This document shows positions 21,637 to 30,847 of a stretch of DNA of 64,000 nt, piece after piece. The stretch lies in NCBI RefSeq assembly GCF_041886205.1, contig NZ_CP169029.1. One strand, given 5' to 3'. Position 1 is the first letter of the stretch. Each line of letters opens with the position of its first letter. Source of the DNA: Escherichia coli (GTDB lineage: Bacteria; Pseudomonadota; Gammaproteobacteria; Enterobacterales; Enterobacteriaceae). The notes under the pieces are model-generated. The model was not told the origin of the DNA, searched no databases, and saw only the letters and a list, made by a program, of their open reading frames with translations. A program made the translations under genes and the position numbers.

Positions 21637-22827
21637 ATGTTTGAGAACATTACCGCCGCTCCTGCCGACCCGATTCTGGGCCTGGCCGATCTGTTTCGTG
21701 CCGATGAACGTCCCGGCAAAATTAACCTCGGGATTGGTGTCTATAAAGATGAGACGGGCAAAACCCCGGTACTGACCAGCGTGAAAAAGGCTGAACAGTA
21801 TCTGCTCGAAAATGAAACCACCAAAAATTACCTCGGCATTGACGGCATCCCTGAATTTGGTCGCTGCACTCAGGAACTGCTGTTTGGTAAAGGTAGCGCC
21901 CTGATCAATGACAAACGTGCTCGCACGGCACAGACTCCGGGGGGCACTGGCGCACTACGCGTGGCTGCCGATTTCCTGGCAAAAAATACCAGCGTTAAGC
22001 GTGTGTGGGTGAGCAACCCAAGCTGGCCGAACCATAAGAGCGTCTTTAACTCTGCAGGTCTGGAAGTTCGTGAATACGCTTATTATGATGCGGAAAATCA
22101 CACTCTTGACTTCGATGCACTGATTAACAGCCTGAATGAAGCTCAGGCTGGCGACGTAGTGCTGTTCCATGGCTGCTGCCATAACCCAACCGGTATCGAC
22201 CCTACGCTGGAACAATGGCAGACACTGGCACAACTCTCCGTTGAGAAAGGCTGGTTACCGCTGTTTGACTTCGCTTACCAGGGTTTTGCCCGTGGTCTGG
22301 AAGAAGATGCTGAAGGACTGCGCGCTTTCGCGGCTATGCATAAAGAGCTGATTGTTGCCAGTTCCTACTCTAAAAACTTTGGCCTGTACAACGAGCGTGT
22401 TGGCGCTTGTACTCTGGTTGCTGCCGACAGTGAAACCGTTGATCGCGCATTCAGCCAAATGAAAGCGGCGATTCGCGCTAACTACTCTAACCCACCAGCA
22501 CACGGCGCTTCTGTTGTTGCCACCATCCTGAGCAACGATGCGTTACGTGCGATTTGGGAACAAGAGCTGACTGATATGCGCCAGCGTATTCAGCGTATGC
22601 GTCAGTTGTTCGTCAATACGCTGCAGGAAAAAGGCGCAAACCGCGACTTCAGCTTTATCATCAAACAGAACGGCATGTTCTCCTTCAGTGGCCTGACAAA
22701 AGAACAAGTGCTGCGTCTGCGCGAAGAGTTTGGCGTATATGCGGTTGCTTCTGGTCGCGTAAATGTGGCCGGGATGACACCAGATAACATGGCTCCGCTG
22801 TGCGAAGCGATTGTGGCAGTGCTGTAA
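21637..22827 (+). CDS. aspC: Aspartate aminotransferase
   Basis: 396-aa [39 protein letters not shown]...; PLP-lysine region [14 protein letters not shown]. Confidence 0.97.
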
Positions 22828-22837
22828 GCGTTAAAAA

Positions 22838-22870
22838 CAATGAAGCCCGCTGAAAAGCGGGCTTTTTTAT
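22838..22870. terminator. Bidirectional rho-independent terminator between convergent aspC and ycbL
   Basis: Stem agcccgc/gcgggct flanked by A-run on one side and T-run on the other. Confidence 0.6.
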
Positions 22871-22875
22871 GCGAC

Positions 22876-23523
22876 TTACCAGACGGGCATTTCGTCTTGC
22901 AGGAAGGGATTGTGCAGGCGCTCATAACCAAGAGTGGATAATGGTCCGTGACCCGGAATAAATGTCACGTCATCCCCCAGTGGCAGCAATTTATCTTTGA
23001 TTGAAGAAATCAGTTGATTATGATCGCCACGCGGGAAGTCACTGCGCCCTACTCCGCCTTTGAAAATAACATCGCCAGAAATCAGCAGCTTTGCCCGATC
23101 ATCAAAAAACACGACATGACCCGGCGTATGCCCAGGGCAATGTAACACCTGTAAAGTCACATTCCCTATGCTGATGGTATCGCCTTCGTTCAGCCAACGA
23201 TCTGGCGTCAGCGGCTGGCACTCTTCCAGACCAAACATACGACTTTGCGCAGGCAAGCCTTGCAGCCAGAACTCATCTTCTTTTTCCGGGCCAAAAACCG
23301 GCACGCCGTAATGTTGCGCCAGTTCCGCCGCTGCGCCAACGTGGTCCAGATGACCATGCGTCAGCAGGATCTGCATCAGTGTCAGGCCGCTGTCATCAAC
23401 TTCCTGTTTGATTTTTTCCGCATCGCCGCCAGGATCGACCAGTGCGGCCAGGCGGGTTTGTTCACACCAGATCAATGAACAGTTCTGGGAGAATGCGGTG
23501 ACCGGAATAATACGATAGTTCAT
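22876..23523 (-). CDS. ycbL: Metallo-beta-lactamase-fold hydrolase (glyoxalase II-like) YcbL
   Basis: 215-aa ORF with HxHxDH motif (THGHLDHVG). Confidence 0.9.
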
Positions 23524-23549
23524 ACTGCCCCTGTTTCGTTAAGCAATTA

Positions 23550-24098
23550 CTACCAGTGCCGTGCTGGCCCGGTATCAATATGCACAAAGTTACTACGTGG
23601 GTAATATCCTACACCACCTGCGCGCATAGATAACGCGGCTTTGCGAATATTGCTTAACGCGATACCTTCAATATGGAAATCCATCGCCTGGCCTTTAGTG
23701 TGATAGCTTTTCTTCGCTACTCCACGGCTGCGGGCGCGTAGTTCATTGTTGGTATCAATGGAACGATAACCGGAAATGAGTTGCACCGGTTTGCGGGTGC
23801 CTAACAACCCTTGCAGGCGATACAACTGGTCGAATAATCCTGGGTCGATGGACTTTATTTTGTTCGCGCGGTAATCGCGGAAAAAATGGTTAAGTTTTGC
23901 CAATTCTTCCTGAATATAGCCTCTGCCATCGAAAAACTCCGCTTTGATTGACTCTCCGGTATGAAGATTATTGAGTGTCAAAATGCGCGGGCGTGGGGTA
24001 GAGAGTGTTGCAAACGCAGGGGTCGGCAGGATGGCGGCACCGAGTGCAACGCCACCAAGCGCCAGCAATTTGCGGCGATTAGCGTCGAATTTGTCCAT
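23550..24098 (-). CDS. mepK: Murein L,D-endopeptidase MepK (YcbK), Tat-exported
   Basis: ORF 23550..24107; start at ATG 24098 (MDKFDANRRKLLALGGVALGAAILPTPAFA with twin-arginine motif), 182 aa. Confidence 0.85.
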   Translation of the reverse strand: MDKFDANRRKLLALGGVALGAAILPTPAFATLSTPRPRILTLNNLHTGESIKAEFFDGRGYIQEELAKLNHFFRDYRANKIKSIDPGLFDQLYRLQGLLGTRKPVQLISGYRSIDTNNELRARSRGVAKKSYHTKGQAMDFHIEGIALSNIRKAALSMRAGGVGYYPRSNFVHIDTGPARHW

Positions 24099-24278
24099 GA
24101 TAATCAAGTCTACAGGTCAATGTTATCGTTTATATGCACTTCTGGCGCACAAGAGGCACCTTAACCGCCCGTAAAGCAGACGTCAAGATGACTAAACCCC
24201 AGCAGTGACGGGGGCTGCAGAGAATCGCCCCCAATCATGCTAATTATTACGACAACTGATTTCCCCGAACTACTTCAT

Positions 24279-26126
24279 TTACCTGATTAATTGTTCCGCT
24301 TTCGATACGATTTGCGAGCTGGATCGCGCAGGCAGATCATAATTGTAAATATCTGTACGATACTGGGTACGACCATCTGCACCAACAAAGGCAGTCAGGT
24401 AGTAGAGATTCACCGGAATCGACTGCCGAATATTGACGTAACGCGTATCACCCTGCTTCAGCGCATCAGAAATACGTTTGTCATTCCAGCCTGCATCCTG
24501 CAACAGCATATTCGCCAGATCGGAAGCTTTATTCACTCGTACACAGCCTGAGCTCAATGCGCGTGTATCACGCTTGAACAGATTGTGGTTCGGCGTGTCA
24601 TGCAAATAAATGGCCTCTGAACTCGGCATATTGAATTTATAGCGCCCCAGCGAGTTCCGTGGGCCTGGAGCCTGCTGGAAGCGGAACGGTAAATTCGAGG
24701 CCGTGATTGTAGACCAGTCAACCTGCCATGGGTCAATCGCTTCTCTGCTGTTCCAGCCGCGCATCACCGTATAGCCATGGCTTTCGAGATATCCCGGATC
24801 GTTGCGCACTTTCGGCAGAATATCTTTGCGTGCCAGAGTTGGTGGTACGTTCCACGGCGGGTTTACCACTACGTTGTTAAGGGCACTGCTCATCATCGGC
24901 GTTTTGCGATCGGGGCGACCGACAATGACTCGGGAATCCAGCACCTGATTGCCGTTCTGATAATAAACCAGCGAATAGGCCGGAATGTTAACCATGATCC
25001 CGGTAGAAAGCTCTGTTGGCAGCAAGCGCAATCGCTGGATGTTGAGTGCCAACACGCCAGCACGCTGGGCGGGCGTTACGTTTAACCAGTCCCGCGTTGC
25101 CGGGCCAATAGCACCATCTGCCCCCAATCCTTGCCATGCCTGAAAACGTTTAACGGCTTCCACCAGTTCATTATCGTAGGCGGCGCGAACGGCAGGCGCA
25201 GGTTTACTACGAGACGTCGTTTGTTTGTCCATCGGCTTAGTTTCTGCTGTTTCAACAGTAACAGCGGATGGGCTGACTACCGCGTCAGTTGGCGTGTCAT
25301 CGCCAGGTAGCGTAATTTTCGGCCCCCCGTCCAACATGCCTGTGCGTTGCAATATTTCGCGCAACGCCGGTACGTCGTTACTCCACTGCCCTGGGCGCAA
25401 CGTTGCTTTGCCGGTCAGTTGGGGCCACGGTTTGGTGTCACTAAGTAAGGCCAGTAACGACTCATGCATCGCCGCATATTGCGGATGCTGCGGTGCCAGT
25501 CCTGCAACAAACGTAGGCAATTGGCCTTTATCCAGCGCCAGCTGCCATTGGTTAATCACCGAAAGCGGCGGCGTTGCAAGCGCATAAGGTTTACTGCTAT
25601 ATAGCCAGCGAGTGCCTTTGACTGGAATATTTGCAATGAAATGGAGATAGCCCATCATCGCATCAGAGAGCACCACGTCGCGTGCCATCCCGTTAACACC
25701 AGGATCGGTCAGTAACTCTACCCATTTATTAAACTGCGGCTGGAAACCGGCAATCGCCACCTCTGCCAGCTGTTGCTGGAAGGCTTTAACAGCATCACGG
25801 TTTTCCCACATGGGTTGCATATCGCGTGCGGCATACAACAATTGAAGCTGGTTAAGATAAACCGGCTTGTAACCTGCGGGTAATTGAGATTCGATTTGCG
25901 TGCGGGCTTTTTCTGCCGCACCTTCAGGCAATGGCTGGATCCCCGCCATTATTGCCGTGGCTTGCGCCTGCGGCAGTGCCTCGCCCTGTTCACTGACAGC
26001 CACCGGGCTGTCGCCAGGGATTACTTCAGGCTCATCGGCCTGCGCATTGAACAGTGGAGCGAATGTTACGGCCAGGCACAAACTGATTGCCGACAGCCGA
26101 CGACCACACATCATATTAAGCAACAT
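24279..26126 (-). CDS. ldtD: L,D-transpeptidase LdtD (YcbB)
   Basis: 615-aa ORF with signal peptide and C-terminal YkuD-type catalytic region (HDTPNHNLF...SSGCVR). Confidence 0.9.
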
Positions 26127-26349
26127 CCCTTGCCCCCTGTTTTTATCATACTCTGAATAGCCAGGCTGTTATTTTACGACTTGCCTGTACAACGCCAATA
26201 CTCACGAAAGTATGACGAGCAAGCCTGTTACTCATCAGGCTTATCTTCAGTATATAAACGCCGATACGTTTTTACATAACCTAATGTAAAGAAGTTTAAA
26301 GAAAAGCGCGCCGTAATGTGCCACTTTTTTAGTGCAGAAACGGAGTTTT

Positions 26350-26382
26350 CGGAAAAAGAAAAGGCGGCATTGCTGCCGCCTT
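26350..26382 (-). terminator. Rho-independent terminator after mukB
   Basis: Stem aaggcggc/gccgcctt followed on minus strand by ttctttttcc. Confidence 0.5.
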
Positions 26383-26386
26383 CATT

Positions 26387-29300
26387 TTAACTCGCCTGGG
26401 AAGGCGCTTCGTCACTTCCTGGAAGCGTTTCAGGGAGTTGCGGCGCAAATCCTCGCAGGCCGACGACGTGAACATGTTCGGTATTCTGGAAGACTTTACG
26501 CACCAGTTTATAGGTGGTGCCTTTCTCCGGGCTGATATTTTCCGGCGCTGCGATGATGAGCTGCATTTGCAAACGTTCACACAATTCAAACAGCGTGGCG
26601 ATAGAACGAGCATCCAGTCGCGCTGCTTCATCGAGGAACAGCAGGCGGCAAGGAGAGATATCTTTACCGCGCAGGCGGCGAGATTCATCTTCCCAGCTTT
26701 GTACCACCATCACCAGAATCGACATACCGGTACCAATCGCCTCACCGGTCGACAGAGCACCAGACTCTGCGCGCAACCAGCCATCGGAACCACGGTTAAC
26801 CTCAACTTCCATTTCCAGATAGTTGCGGTAATCCAGCAGTTCTTCGCCAATGGTCTGCGGCGTGCGCTGCCCCATATCAATCTGCGGATTAAGACGCTGA
26901 TACAATTTCGCCAGCGCTTCCGAGAAGGTCAGACGGTTGCTGTTAAACAGATCCTGATGCTGCTCGTGCTGTTCAGAGAGCACATCCAGCAGCATGGCGT
27001 GCGTTTCACGCACGTTCACGTTCAGACGTACGCTGTTCACCTGACCAAACGATACGTTCTGCAAACCCTGGTTGAGCATACGGATACGGTTCTGTTCGCG
27101 CTGAATGGTTTTGCGAATAATGTTCGCCACGCTGCGGGAACTGATCGCCAGTTTCTGTTCACGGGAGGTTAATTCTTCGGTCAGACGGCTAAGCTCGATC
27201 TCCATCTGTTCGATAGCTTCCACCGGATCATCGGTACGAATAATATCCTGACGAATACGTTCACGCAGATGCTGATAAACCGCCACGAAGAACTGAATTT
27301 TACGTTCCGGACGTTTTGGATCTTCCGACATACGCAGCACGTCGCGCAGATGTTCGTTATCCGCCACCGCCAGACGCAGCGCACCTAACGCCTTATCCGA
27401 CATGGAACGCAAATCATCAGCGGAGAGATAAGCCAGCTCACGACGGTGTAAGCGGCGCTCAACGCCGTTATCTTTCACCATGCGCATCACCGCACACCAG
27501 CCCGCTTTGGCGGTCACTACCTGCTCGCGCATCTCAAAGTAATCCCGCTCCAGCTTGCGCAGTTTGCGGGTCAGGTTGTCCATCTCCGCTTCGCAGAAGG
27601 TAAGCGCTTTTTCCAGTTGATTGCGGCGTGAACGGTTATTGCTCAGTTGCGCATGCAGCTCGTCACGGCGAATACGCGCCCGCTCTTCTGCCCCGCTATC
27701 AGCACGCACGCCGATATCCTGCAATTCACGTTGCAGATCGTTGAGTAGCTCTTTTTTGGTGTCGTAAGAACTTTTCAGCGAAGCCAGCACCTGGTTGTAC
27801 TGACTCAACTGCGCTGCGTGACCGCGCAACGCTTCGCGAGCGCGGGTACGCTCCGCTTCCGCCTGTTCCAGACGTTCACGCAGTTTTTCGTTGAGATCGC
27901 TGTTACCGCTAAGCATTTCTGCCGAGTCAGAATAGCTAAAGTGCGCACGACGCTGCACCACTTCCGTCAGGGCAAACGCCTGCTGACGGGCATCGCGCTG
28001 CATCTGCTGAGAGTACGCGTAATCTTCTTTTAACTGTTCGAACTGTTCCGGGTCGCTCTGCAATACCGAAACGATCGGTTCCAGTTTCGCCAGTTGATTG
28101 CCAAACTGCTGAACAAAACGCGCAGCTTCCTGGGCTTCATCCAGACGTTCGCGGATTTCATCGACGCGATCCGCCAGGCTGTCATCAGCCAACAGGTTGA
28201 GACGCGGCAGAATGCGGTTCAGCGCCGTAACGCCTTCTTTCGCCTGCTCAAACTGAATACGCTGCTGCTGGTTATCATTTTCATGATTACTCAACGCCCG
28301 CTCCAGTTCGACGCGACGGCTGTTCAGTTGACGGATTTCTGCTTCCGGGTCAGACTCAAACGCAACCGCCAGATGACTGCCGATAAAGCGGCTGAACGCC
28401 TGATGCAGACGCTGAGTTTTCTGTACATCAAAGGAGAGCGTGGCGAAGCGTTCGGAAAGCACTTCACGCTCGGCATGGAGGCTTTCAATACGGCTTTCAC
28501 GCGCAGCACGACCAAACAGCGGCACTTCCGGGAAACGTGAATAACGCCACTGACGATCGGCGATTTTCACCACTACCGCTTTTTCCAGCTCATCAACGCT
28601 GAACACGCTGTCATCGAATGACTGCGGATCTCCTTCGATCAGATAGAGATCTTCCGGGCAATCGGTCAAGCCTTCCAGGTGTTCAGTTACCTGTGACAGA
28701 TCTGGCACCACGATGGCGTGGCGTGACGGGCCATACAGCGCTGAGAAGTACGGCGCATCTTCCAGGCTAACGTCGTCATAAATTTCTGACAGCAGCACAC
28801 CACCAAAACGCTCCGCCAGCGCGTTCAGACGCTGATCTTCAGAGCCGCCAGGCTGGCTTAAACGTTCGATCTCTTCATCGACGGCGTTTTTGCGCGCGCC
28901 CACTTCATCGCGTTCAACAATCGCCTCTCGCTCACGCTCCAGCAACTGTTGCAGATATTCGGTGACGTCCTGGCTGGAGGTAAACTCTTCGCCGCACTGT
29001 TCGCTCAACTGGTTGAGACTGTTTTGCGCTGCCAGCCAAACCGGCGCACGCTGCATCAAACTCTGAATGCGAGACTGCAGCTGTTCCTGCTCCTGGCGCA
29101 GTGCCATGCGCTCTTCACGGGCGTTAGACACGCTATCGGAAAGAGAGGCAATGCGTGCTTCCAGTTCCTGATGCAGGGCTTCCAGTTCGTCGATATCAAA
29201 ATTCTTGCCCTGACGTTTGCAGAAATCTGCCAGCAGACGCTCAGCTTCTTGCTGCTCGCGTAGACGCTGTTCCAGTTCGCTTAATCGCATCCGCAGCGGC

Positions 29301-30847
29301 TGAACCTGCTCTGCCAGGTGACGCTGATCGACCCCTTCGCGCAATAGTTCGCGAGCGACATCCCACGCCTCGTTACGCGCCAGTGGGCCGTTGATTGCCA
29401 CCACCAGCTGATAAGCCTGCTCAAACTGGCTGTGCGCGGTTTGCGCCATGCTCATTTTCTGCTCAAGAGAGAGCATTTTTTCAGTCGCTTCCAGCTCTTT
29501 CGCCTGGAAGGTTTCCAGCCATTCGGCGGCGCTGTCGGCGGTTAAGTCCGGCAGATGGCACAGTTCTTTGGCGCGATTAAGCGCAGCAATCGCCTGGTTA
29601 TACTGGATCGCGCGCGTTTGCTGGACGTCCAGCGCCTGCTGGTAGTCAGCAAGCTGGCTTTTCAGCTCGTCCACTTCCAGTTCGGCAGCTTCCGCACGAA
29701 CCTCGTTCTCTTCCTGGCGTTCGATGGCTTCTGCCACCACTTCGTTTTGCTCTTCCAGACGGATCTGCAGCTCATCGAGATCCGCTTCGTAGCGTTCGAT
29801 CTTCTCCTGCTGACGCAGTGCGGTTTGCACCAGGTTCAGGTGATCGCTGGCCGCCTGATAATCCGCTTCCAGATCGCCTTCGGCACCGTTGTGCTCTGCC
29901 AGCTCACGCGCCATATCGACGTGTTTGTACTGCTCAGCCGCCAGTTGCTGACGCGAAGTATGTAGCTCGCGACGAAACTCCAGGGCTTTGTCGAGATGGA
30001 CACGGCGCTCGTTGGCGTGACGCATGTAGTCCGCCGCCACGTAGTTGGTAGCTTCGCTGATCAGATGCTTAAACAGGTCACGGTCCGACTGGGTGACACG
30101 AATCGCTTCCAGCGTCATGCGGTTTTCACGCAGCGCCGCTTCCATGTCCTGGAACGCTTTACGCACGCCGCTGTTTTCCGGCAACAGGTAGTCGCGCAGA
30201 GAACGGGTAATGGCACTGGAGATCCCGCCATACAGCGAAGCTTCGATCAGACGATAGAATTTGCTACGGTCAGATGCGGAGCGCAGACGACGCGCGATGA
30301 TGCCCAGATCGAACATCATCGAGTGGTAATCGGTAATGGAGTTGAACTGTTTAAACTGCACGCCTTCCATCGCCTCGAGCTTGTCTTTCAGCTCGTTAAG
30401 CGGCAGCACGCGCGCCTGGCGTTCGTTCAGGGTTTCGGTCACCAGCTGTGTCGGCTGCACCGACATCGGCAGTCCCTGAATGGCAAATGGTTTGATATCC
30501 ACTTTACGATCGCGTCCGGCAACCTGTTGCAGACGCACACCGACCACCACGCGCTGGTGGCGCGAGTTAATGGTGTCGAGCATCGAATAACAGACACCCG
30601 CTTTCAGCTTACCGTGCAGACCTTTATCGCGCGAACCGCTGGTGGCCCCGGCTTCCGTAGTGTTACGGAAATGCAGCAGGGTCAGGTCGGGGATCAGCGC
30701 CGTAACGAACGCCGCCATCGTGGTGGATTTACCCGCCCCGTTACCGCCGGAAAGCGTCGTGACCAGCTCGTCAAGGTCAAAAGTTCGGGCAAAAAAGCCG
30801 TTCCAGTTAATCAGCGTCAGTGAGCGAAATTTACCGCGTTCAATCAT
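26387..30847 (-). CDS. mukB: Chromosome partition protein MukB (SMC-like condensin)
   Basis: 1486-aa ORF; N-terminal Walker A (GGNGAGKST), long coiled coils, C-terminal ABC signature/Walker B (LLFLDEA). Confidence 0.97.

Follow-up and report, generated by a model that had tools for sequence, protein, structure and literature searches.

Gene content of the locus

We analyzed a 64,000-nt stretch of the Escherichia coli chromosome (hereafter the window), in which mukB, ldtD (ycbB), mepK (ycbK) and gloC (ycbL) all lie on the minus strand. ldtD spans positions 24279–26126 (615 aa; identified from the open reading frame list, Pfam, RefSeq, PDB 6NTW and NCBIfam), mepK spans 23550–24098 from its ATG, or 23550–24107 from an in-frame TTG (open reading frame list, Pfam, RefSeq, NCBIfam), and gloC spans 22876–23523 (open reading frame list, Pfam, RefSeq, and its place in the ycbK;ycbL unit of Cho et al., 2014). 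In this region RefSeq annotates ldtD, gloC and an ATG-initiated mepK of 549 nt (182 aa), whose product has the same sequence as the MepK encoded here. The identities given to the three genes in an earlier note on this DNA were confirmed by RefSeq and Pfam, and for LdtD and MepK by NCBIfam equivalog models as well, and the open reading frame list agreed with its description of ldtD and mepK as same-strand neighbours. The note had also reported a 171-bp gap between these two genes; the gap exists, but that length counts from the TTG at 24107, while from the annotated ATG at 24098 it measures 180 bp. Its remark that ycbL follows directly was accurate, with 26 bp between mepK and gloC.

Several complete E. 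coli chromosomes match the region at 100% identity, and of 5426 complete E. coli genomes 5421 carry the locus (95–100% identity). In K-12, ldtD (b0925), mepK (b0926) and gloC (b0927) have the same gene order, strand relation and gap as here, so that the functions, Tat export, Cpx/sigma-S versus sigma-E regulation and transcription unit maps published for that strain apply directly to the window. One SNP in the ldtD-mepK gap distinguishes the window strain from MG1655, with otherwise no difference of substance, and the window strain lacks a 173-bp REP (BIME) insertion between gloC and aspC that is carried by MG1655 and PT62. This is the canonical, well-studied and already known ldtD-mepK-gloC locus of E. 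coli.

LdtD, MepK and GloC proteins

LdtD is known from the literature as a Sec-exported, periplasmic YkuD-type L,D-transpeptidase that forms 3-3 (mDAP3-mDAP3) cross-links, which allow E. coli to bypass its penicillin-binding proteins and to survive outer-membrane assembly stress. The protein in the window contains YkuD, Scaffold and PG_binding_1 domains, with the YkuD catalytic domain scoring 92.6 bits in Pfam (cutoff 23.4) and the N-terminal portion showing the scaffold plus peptidoglycan-binding architecture of E. coli YcbB. Its catalytic Cys528 lies within SSGCVRV, in agreement with the S-x-G-C-h-R motif, residues 31–615 are matched by the E. coli YcbB structure (PDB 6NTW), and the NCBIfam equivalog NF007891 is passed at 1201 bits (cutoff 425). 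Given this literature, the RefSeq name and the 95–100% chromosome identity, the window LdtD is the predicted maker of 3-3 cross-links.

MepK matched Pfam Peptidase_M15_2 (DUF882, PF05951) at 206 bits and passed the NCBIfam equivalog NF053624 at 274.9 bits (cutoff 185). The metal ligands H133, D140 and H173 (H-x6-D … H, LAS-type) were invariant in 49 diverse homologues. The signal peptide comprises residues 1–30 (24009–24098, minus strand), in which N-R-R-K-L-L at residues 7–12 precedes a hydrophobic segment and AFA; in the homologue alignment R8 was nearly invariant and R9 invariant. Together with the experimental demonstration of Tat dependence for MepK in Salmonella, conservation of the arginine pair at residues 8–9 bears out the twin-arginine signal proposed in the earlier note. 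In the literature, MepK is described as a zinc endopeptidase of the LAS/M15 type with 3-3 cross-links as its substrate. When YcbB makes 3-3 cross-links, MepM and MepK are the minimal set of endopeptidases that growth requires, and purified Mep enzymes have dual 4-3 and 3-3 activity (Voedts et al.). The window MepK is predicted to cleave 3-3 cross-links by virtue of this cited work, with which the suggested functional pairing, LdtD making and MepK cutting the same bond, agrees.

We also searched for fusions of MepK with LdtD, and found 10 long MepK-domain proteins that had no Pfam match outside the M15 domain and whose tails were of low complexity. Paralogues of the same Pfam family with a LAS-type metal site like that of MepK occur on conjugative plasmids of Neisseria gonorrhoeae and on Pseudomonas megaplasmids, but these are plasmid-borne and only 30–36% identical to MepK, and from their location they are probably transfer-associated wall hydrolases.

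GloC has the metallo-beta-lactamase fold (Pfam Lactamase_B, 140 bits), and its translation contains THGHLDH, an H-x-H-x-D-H metal motif. It did not reach the cutoffs of the curated hydroxyacylglutathione hydrolase models (GSH_gloB, 111 bits against 200.8; PRK10241, 72 against 421). GloC belongs to a subfamily distinct from GloB, with a putative glyoxalase II function taken from the RefSeq name. The terminator scan placed a bidirectional hairpin, common to gloC and the convergent aspC, at 22843–22864 (both strands), and the aspC RNA 3′ end maps to it (Adams, 2021).

Features upstream of ldtD

Between mukB and ldtD, the scan identified an intrinsic terminator of mukB at 26360–26383 (minus strand), a hairpin with a 10-bp stem and 6 GC pairs followed by a T run (tail TCTTTTTCC), which is predicted to insulate ldtD from mukFEB. 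A search of 23400–26500 with Rfam returned only a chance match, at this terminator. The ldtD promoter region lies at 26133–26254 (minus strand), with a -10-like TATACT at 26254–26249 and start sites at approximately 26242 (distal) and 26133 (proximal). These correspond to start sites 980154 and 980263 (U00096.2), which are bound by sigma-70/sigma-S and assigned to a unit consisting of ycbB alone (Cho et al., 2014, Supplementary Table S6); their positions on the window are inferred ones, obtained through coordinate arithmetic. A pattern search also yielded a candidate CpxR-box-like motif, GTAAAGAAGTTTAAA, at 26286–26300 (plus strand), with one mismatch to GTAAA-N5-GTAAA. This motif is centred at about -51 relative to the distal ldtD start site and recurs in 36 of 50 mukB-ldtD gaps from Enterobacterales, essentially those of Enterobacteriaceae.

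Anatomy of the ldtD-mepK gap

The gap measures 167–189 bp in most of 77 Enterobacterales species, and all of the features described in this section are on the minus strand. Alignment of 67 gaps revealed a conserved block directly after the ldtD stop (24241–24278), which we designate P1 and regard as a candidate sigma-E-type promoter. P1 combines a -10-like GTCGTAA (TCGTA at 24252–24248) with a weak -35, and its minor start site, 24241, is reported as position 982155 with 15 reads and an "E" motif (Cho et al., 2014), and its gGTCnnAA is conserved across the alignment. The -10 and the 6-nt discriminator fit the description of sigma-E promoters by Rhodius (2006), while the -35 fits poorly; a crude scan of the gap and the 3′ end of ldtD with the sigma-E consensus (GGAACTT-N15–17-TCnnA) gave no convincing match in the gap and no convincing GGAACTT -35. 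A consensus match inside ldtD (24658) was rejected, as it lies in a conserved coding stretch and has no mapped start site.

Approximately 45 nt past the ldtD stop lies a terminator-like hairpin, HP1 (GGGGGC-N11-GCCCCC; 24210–24232), which in E. coli has no U tract. The scan detected no canonical terminator between ldtD and mepK, and Term-seq reported no RNA 3′ end right after HP1 (Adams, 2021). A stable hairpin was nevertheless present at this position in all 64 Enterobacterales gaps folded (median dG -21 kcal/mol, median start +39), differing in sequence among species and flanked in some by A and T tracts.

Further downstream is the main mepK-gloC promoter, P2 (24150–24186), with a -35 TTGACG at 24186–24181, a 17-nt spacer and a -10 TAAGGT at 24163–24158. 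Its start site, 24150, lies 8 nt past the -10 and at -52 relative to the mepK ATG. The element TTGAC-N17-TAnnGT did not vary among 67 species, and it agrees with the position of the major start site, 982246, which has 367 reads, is bound by sigma-70/sigma-S and is assigned to the unit ycbK;ycbL (Cho et al., 2014). The E. coli gap has a stable predicted fold (z = -4.4), but RNAalifold on 67 species gave no consensus pairs for the promoter-proximal 110 nt. We therefore rejected a conserved RNA structure for this segment, where what is conserved is the promoter sequence.

An RNA 3′ end was mapped within the gap at 24147, which is 131 nt past the stop codon of ldtD and leaves 49 nt to the ATG of mepK; it is position 983026 in Term-seq Supplementary File 1 of Adams (2021), was placed on the window via the flanking sequence printed there, and was seen in one of three conditions, stationary phase (LB, OD 2.0). 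Additional 3′ ends occur at +46 and +50 of the mepK open reading frame (24048–24052; 983121 and 983125 in Supplementary Files 1–3), within a significant Rho termination region (983123, score 2.01, p = 6e-5; Adams, 2021).

Transcription of ldtD and mepK in E. coli

Published transcription units, which come from a few laboratory conditions, show ycbB as monocistronic and place ycbK;ycbL in a unit of its own, whose start sites, -143 and -52, lie inside the gap (Cho et al., 2014, Table S6). In the same study, an rpoS knockout lowered the log2 signal of ycbB from 12.5 to 7.1 (a fall of ~40-fold) and raised those of ycbK from 8.8 to 12.2 (~10-fold) and ycbL from 8.4 to 11 (~6-fold), and the wild-type ycbB signal was ~14-fold higher than that of ycbK. 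The sigma-E regulon includes ycbK-ycbL (induced 9.7-fold and 6.6-fold, respectively) but not ycbB, a sigma-E ChIP-seq peak is present at ycbK in Salmonella, and ldtD is a member of the Cpx regulon. The SMRT-Cappable-seq supplements contained no entry for ldtD, mepK or gloC. Read-through from ldtD into mepK may still take place under strong Cpx induction.

Conservation of the ldtD-mepK pair

The mukB-ldtD-mepK-gloC block is intact in approximately 77 species of Enterobacterales, and every Enterobacterales locus that we examined retains all of mukB-ldtD-mepK-gloC-aspC-ompF, so that within this order the pair is inseparable from general synteny. A locus search with 12 MepK sequences returned only Enterobacterales, and the more distant context came from an encoding-contig search and a plasmid collection. 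In this small sample of 10 MepK-equivalog loci outside Enterobacterales, counted without phylogenetic correction, a Scaffold + PG_binding_1 + YkuD gene was immediately upstream in 7, representing 5 distinct contexts with unrelated flanking genes, while the other 3, along with several Rhizobiales records, had no adjacent ldtD. Aeromonas, Cupriavidus and Ideonella also have ldtD directly upstream of mepK, and in Sphingobium the two genes are paired on opposite strands. ldtD-mepK is a conserved, functionally linked pair that recurs as neighbours across distant taxa, and the co-conservation that the earlier note proposed to test extends beyond local synteny.

The spacing of the pair differs among lineages. 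In Ideonella dechloratans, Cupriavidus metallidurans CH34 and four metagenomic loci (L087, L090, L092 and L093), a YcbB-type gene immediately precedes the gene for the MepK equivalog, both on one strand as here; the gap, however, is 44–65 nt in Ideonella and the metagenomic loci, compared with 180 bp in E. coli, and is unannotated and estimated at ~90 nt in CH34. No terminator-like hairpin was found in the four metagenomic gaps that we folded. Unlike in E. coli, these distant pairs (beta-Proteobacteria and metagenomic loci) have no gloC downstream and have unrelated flanks. The short gaps and the absence of such hairpins in those folded suggest that ldtD-mepK may be a true operon in these lineages.

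Discussion

The earlier note had suggested linked control of ldtD and mepK, with a transcript spanning ldtD, mepK and ycbL as a check. Read in this way, ldtD-mepK-gloC would be one operon in which mepK and gloC are expressed mainly via read-through from the ldtD promoter, such that maker and cleaver rise and fall together. The adjacency of the genes on one strand, the lack of a called canonical terminator in the gap, where HP1 has no U tract, and the plausibility of such an operon in the lineages with 44–65-nt gaps and no terminator-like hairpin in the four folded all speak for this arrangement. In E. coli, however, rather than one promoter, one transcript and co-regulation, we found separate published units, with transcription of the second starting inside the gap, an RNA 3′ end in the gap and a gap promoter invariant across 67 species. 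The rpoS knockout moves ycbB down ~40-fold and ycbK/ycbL up ~10-fold/6-fold, the wild-type ycbB signal stands ~14-fold above that of ycbK, and ldtD and mepK-gloC belong to different regulons. Linked control through a single transcript is thus unsupported in E. coli, and we consider the one-operon arrangement very unlikely there.

At the opposite extreme, the adjacency could have no functional meaning and merely reflect the mukB-ompF block synteny of enteric bacteria, as would fit both the retention of that block entire in all Enterobacterales loci and the independent regulation of ldtD and mepK in E. coli. Against this, 7 of the 10 loci outside the order keep the pair in 5 distinct contexts in which all flanks differ, the pair is also found in Aeromonas, Cupriavidus and Ideonella, and in Sphingobium in other orientations, and published genetics tie the activities of LdtD and MepK together. 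We therefore regard mere synteny as extremely improbable. The note had named independent transcription combined with a lack of co-conservation as the outcome that would speak against its proposal; independent transcription does hold, but the pair is co-conserved.

The explanation that we favour, with considerable confidence, is that ldtD and mepK are an ancient pair of neighbours, maker and cleaver, that are transcribed as separate units in E. coli and Enterobacterales and not as one operon. The synthase and hydrolase genes have stayed together in gamma-, beta- and some alpha-Proteobacteria, in keeping with published work in which MepK is required once most cross-links are made by LdtD. ldtD is transcribed alone from the mukB-ldtD gap, under the control of sigma-S and Cpx, and most of its transcripts stop inside the 180-bp gap or in the first part of mepK. 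mepK-gloC is a separate two-gene unit expressed from the invariant sigma-70-type promoter that lies 52 nt upstream of the ATG, and probably also from a sigma-E-dependent one. Gene identities, motifs, adjacency, conservation, start sites, 3′ ends and regulon membership come from our analysis or the cited data, while we infer both the element that stops ldtD transcripts and the sequence that serves as the sigma-E promoter.

A broader version of this explanation, which we put forward tentatively and would judge slightly more doubtful than secure, is that the pair forms an ancient two-state module of Proteobacteria. It would exist in a tight, probably co-transcribed form with 44–65-nt gaps in beta-Proteobacteria and some others, versus an insulated form with ~170–240-nt gaps, a positionally conserved hairpin and the invariant TTGAC-N17-TAnnGT promoter; the insulated form would be that of Enterobacterales and Vibrionaceae-like genomes, along with one or more other lineages. 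Our literature search found no paper describing such an architecture or the breadth of the pairing. For E. coli itself our analysis holds nothing new, and its modest addition is the breadth of pair retention and the conservation of the gap anatomy. If the two-state module is real, the hydrolase would be constitutive and boosted by sigma-E, while sigma-S and Cpx would switch the synthase, even reciprocally. Growth of a 3-3 cross-linked wall requires MepK to open it, and the placing of the two genes as insulated neighbours under different stress regulons helps to explain how the cell avoids producing this type of cross-link without the matching hydrolase.

Organization of the ldtD-mepK locus in E. 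coli

ORFs, RefSeq, Pfam and NCBIfam bore out the coordinates, strand relation and identities given in the earlier note. The genes ldtD (ycbB; 24279-26126, 615 aa), mepK (ycbK; 23550-24098, 182 aa) and gloC (ycbL; 22876-23523, 215 aa) lie on the minus strand with mukB (26387-30847); aspC and ompF are on the plus strand beyond gloC. As claimed, gloC directly follows mepK, starting 26 bp beyond it. The claimed 171-bp ldtD-mepK gap holds if the first in-frame TTG (24107) is used, but becomes 180 bp with the RefSeq MepK ATG (24098). The 64-kb window is E. coli chromosomal DNA: several complete E. coli genomes match 22800-26400 at 100% identity, and the region occurs in 5421 of 5426.

Pfam domains were YkuD, Scaffold and PG_binding_1 for LdtD, Peptidase_M15_2 (DUF882) for MepK and Lactamase_B for GloC. 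The NCBIfam equivalog models for LdtD and "peptidoglycan L,D-endopeptidase MepK" were both exceeded by wide margins, and GloC passed none of the hydroxyacylglutathione hydrolase equivalog models. LdtD residues 31-615 matched the solved YcbB structure 6NTW, with catalytic Cys528 within SSGCVRV, and a sequence search for a solved relative of MepK found none. The metal ligands of MepK are H133, D140 and H173, and it has an N-R-R-K-L-L motif; across 49 diverse homologues the three ligands and R9 are invariant and R8 nearly so. The functions, Tat export, regulons and transcription units of the E. coli genes are all published; this is a textbook locus, and the ldtD-mepK finding is already known.

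We also observed that the convergent gloC-aspC gap (48 bp, 22828-22875) holds one common bidirectional terminator. E. coli PT62 (L098, 229-449) and, by coordinate arithmetic, MG1655 carry a 173-bp insertion there, consisting of two inverted REP elements (BIME) and a second hairpin copy.

Published transcription of ldtD and mepK

The earlier note had suggested linked control of the pair, to be checked by looking for a transcript spanning ldtD-mepK-ycbL. In E. coli, the published data contradict this: the genes form separate units, respond oppositely to rpoS knockout and belong to different regulons, and an RNA 3′ end lies in the gap between them. Start sites 980154 and 980263 lead a unit of ycbB alone, apart from a ycbK;ycbL unit with start sites 982155 (15 reads) and 982246 (367 reads, sigma-70/sigma-S bound) (Cho et al., 2014; PMC3923258, table S6). 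In the rpoS knockout, ycbB fell from 12.5 to 7.1 (log2), while ycbK rose from 8.8 to 12.2 and ycbL from 8.4 to 11; wild-type ycbB signal was ~14-fold that of ycbK (Cho et al., 2014; figure S4 and expression table). Both ycbK (9.7-fold) and ycbL (6.6-fold) were listed as sigma-E induced, as they had been in two earlier studies, in a report whose text nowhere mentions ycbB (Bury-Moné et al., 2009). A Salmonella sigma-E ChIP-seq peak has been assigned to ycbK, and the Cpx regulon includes ldtD. Term-seq (LB, OD 2.0) placed an RNA 3′ end at 983026, and further 3′ ends lie at +46 and +50 of the mepK ORF within a significant Rho termination region (Adams et al., 2021; PMC7815308). We transferred published positions to the window by means of the printed sequences, applying an offset of 777 between the two MG1655 versions that was checked with aspC; the flanking sequence printed for 983026 puts it 49 nt ahead of the mepK ATG.

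Upstream of ldtD, a CpxR-box-like sequence, GTAAAGAAGTTTAAA (26286-26300), lies ~51 nt ahead of the distal start site; 36 of 50 Enterobacterales gaps have it, in essence those of the Enterobacteriaceae. The stronger published ldtD start site (980263, 263 reads) maps to ~26133, 7 nt before the annotated ATG (26126), so close that the RNA would lack the upstream GGGGG/AAGGG ribosome-binding region. This raises the question of whether the true start codon lies further in (Met5 and Met6 follow) or the 5′ end is processed.

Conserved features of the ldtD-mepK gap

The gap is notably constant in length, at 167-189 bp in most of 77 species (median 183), unlike the mepK-gloC spacing, which ranges between 13 and 181 bp. 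Aligning 67 distinct gaps revealed four conserved features, given here on the minus strand. The first, a block following the ldtD stop, has gGTCnnAA at its end (E. coli TCGTA, 24252-24248) and is similar to the -10 element of sigma-E promoters in Rhodius (2006), with a 6-nt discriminator before the minor start site at 24241; because its -35 is poor, we call it only a candidate sigma-E promoter. Next comes the hairpin HP1 (24210-24232), at whose position all 64 species tested have a stable hairpin (median -21 kcal/mol, starting ~39 nt past the ldtD stop). The stems differ in sequence, and in several species A and T tracts flank the hairpin much as in intrinsic terminators; E. coli HP1 has no U tract. 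The third feature, TTGAC-N17-G-TA--GT, is invariant in 67 of 67 species (E. coli -35 24186-24181, -10 24163-24158), and with the major start site (24150) 8 nt past the -10, it is the main mepK-gloC promoter. RNAalifold gave no consensus structure for the promoter-proximal 110 nt of the gap, which are therefore conserved at the sequence level.

The fourth feature, a block around the mepK start codon, contained no obvious Shine-Dalgarno sequence. In Enterobacteriaceae mepK likewise lacks an obvious one (24048-24120), and the block TGTAGACCTGATTATCATG is nearly invariant. Taken with the 3′ ends and Rho region in the Term-seq and bicyclomycin data, this suggests, tentatively, that mepK is controlled translationally or by attenuation. 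Separately, a small hairpin, GUGCGCC-AGAAG-UGCAU, occupies the extreme 5′ terminus of the main mepK RNA (24125-24150). Most Enterobacterales share it, and some of the changes in it are compensatory, but the fold is weak (median MFE -6.4 kcal/mol, median z -1.3).

Co-conservation of the pair

Scanning GTDB with one genome per species yielded 80 loci, all Enterobacterales (MepK 73-98% identical). In all 77 with enough upstream DNA, ldtD is directly upstream and gloC directly downstream of mepK. Since mukB, aspC and ompF also keep the E. coli order at nearly all of them, the pair is indistinguishable from block synteny within this order. We therefore turn to ten distant MepK relatives (43-55% identity, all above the MepK equivalog cutoff): a same-strand Scaffold+PG_binding_1+YkuD gene lies immediately upstream in seven (L082, L086, L087, L088, L090, L092, L093) and is absent there in three (L085, L089, L091). 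Neighbours at the distant loci are unrelated to those in E. coli, with five different contexts among the seven. Reading coordinates of tblastn hits to LdtD and MepK in a plasmid/chromid collection, we found the two genes adjacent on one strand in Proteus, Aeromonas caviae, three Cupriavidus records and Ideonella dechloratans. Three Sphingobium records had them side by side in other orientations, and in Shinella, Sinorhizobium and Microvirga the best hits were not neighbours. Beyond Enterobacterales, gloC directly follows mepK at one Vibrio locus only. Adjacency amid unrelated flanks thus indicates, from gene order in a small sample whose counts ignore kinship, that the pairing is much older than enterobacterial synteny, yet not universal, and the co-conservation expected by the earlier note is upheld to that extent. 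The literature searched, with the original MepK paper left out, nowhere discusses the adjacency or its breadth; the pairing would be visible in neighbourhood databases.

Several further observations arose here. In Vibrio olivae (L086, 3430-4816), the ldtD homologue consists of two overlapping ORFs (3430-3897, 3860-4816) with no gene called; it is a pseudogene disrupted by a frameshift, or else the sequence contains an error. Several plasmid-filed PLSDB records, including NZ_OL790696.1, NZ_OL790811.1 and NZ_AP026896.1, are whole 4-5 Mb chromosomes (E. coli, Proteus mirabilis, Aeromonas caviae "pKAM479_3"), which is why chromosomal ldtD-mepK loci turn up in a plasmid search. P0148, P0165 and ~30 other proteins of 490-730 aa have the MepK (DUF882) domain at the N terminus, those two with ~450-aa tails rich in Ala, Pro, Ser, Thr and Gln; we rejected L,D-transpeptidase fusion, as ten scanned had no Pfam match outside DUF882. 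On Neisseria gonorrhoeae conjugative plasmids and Pseudomonas megaplasmids, DUF882 paralogues with 30-36% identity to MepK are frequent (matches H17-H47) and seem to form a distinct subfamily, probably associated with transfer.

Two possible states of the pair

LdtD and MepK both work on one bond type, and cells depend on MepK once LdtD makes most of the cross-links, which would account for the persistence of the gene pair. In E. coli the pair is most likely insulated: sigma-S and Cpx activate ldtD at its own promoter past the mukB terminator, most ldtD transcripts end before productive mepK expression, and mepK-gloC is driven from its own conserved promoter, boosted by sigma-E. The ldtD transcripts might be stopped by HP1, by a hairpin that the promoter region forms immediately ahead of the 3′ end at -49, or by Rho early in mepK with subsequent trimming.

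Vibrio-like loci and L088 resemble E. coli, having a hairpin and then a TTGAC-type promoter-like match, the hairpin overlapping the -35 in L088. The gap is only 44-65 nt in Ideonella (44 nt as annotated in I. dechloratans) and the metagenomic loci L087, L090, L092 and L093, and folding the four metagenomic gaps gave no terminator-like hairpin; ldtD and mepK may therefore form a true operon in these lineages. We consider the chances about even that the two states, the invariant promoter and the positional hairpin are both right and undescribed, and this two-state comparative view adds modestly to what is known of the E. coli locus.
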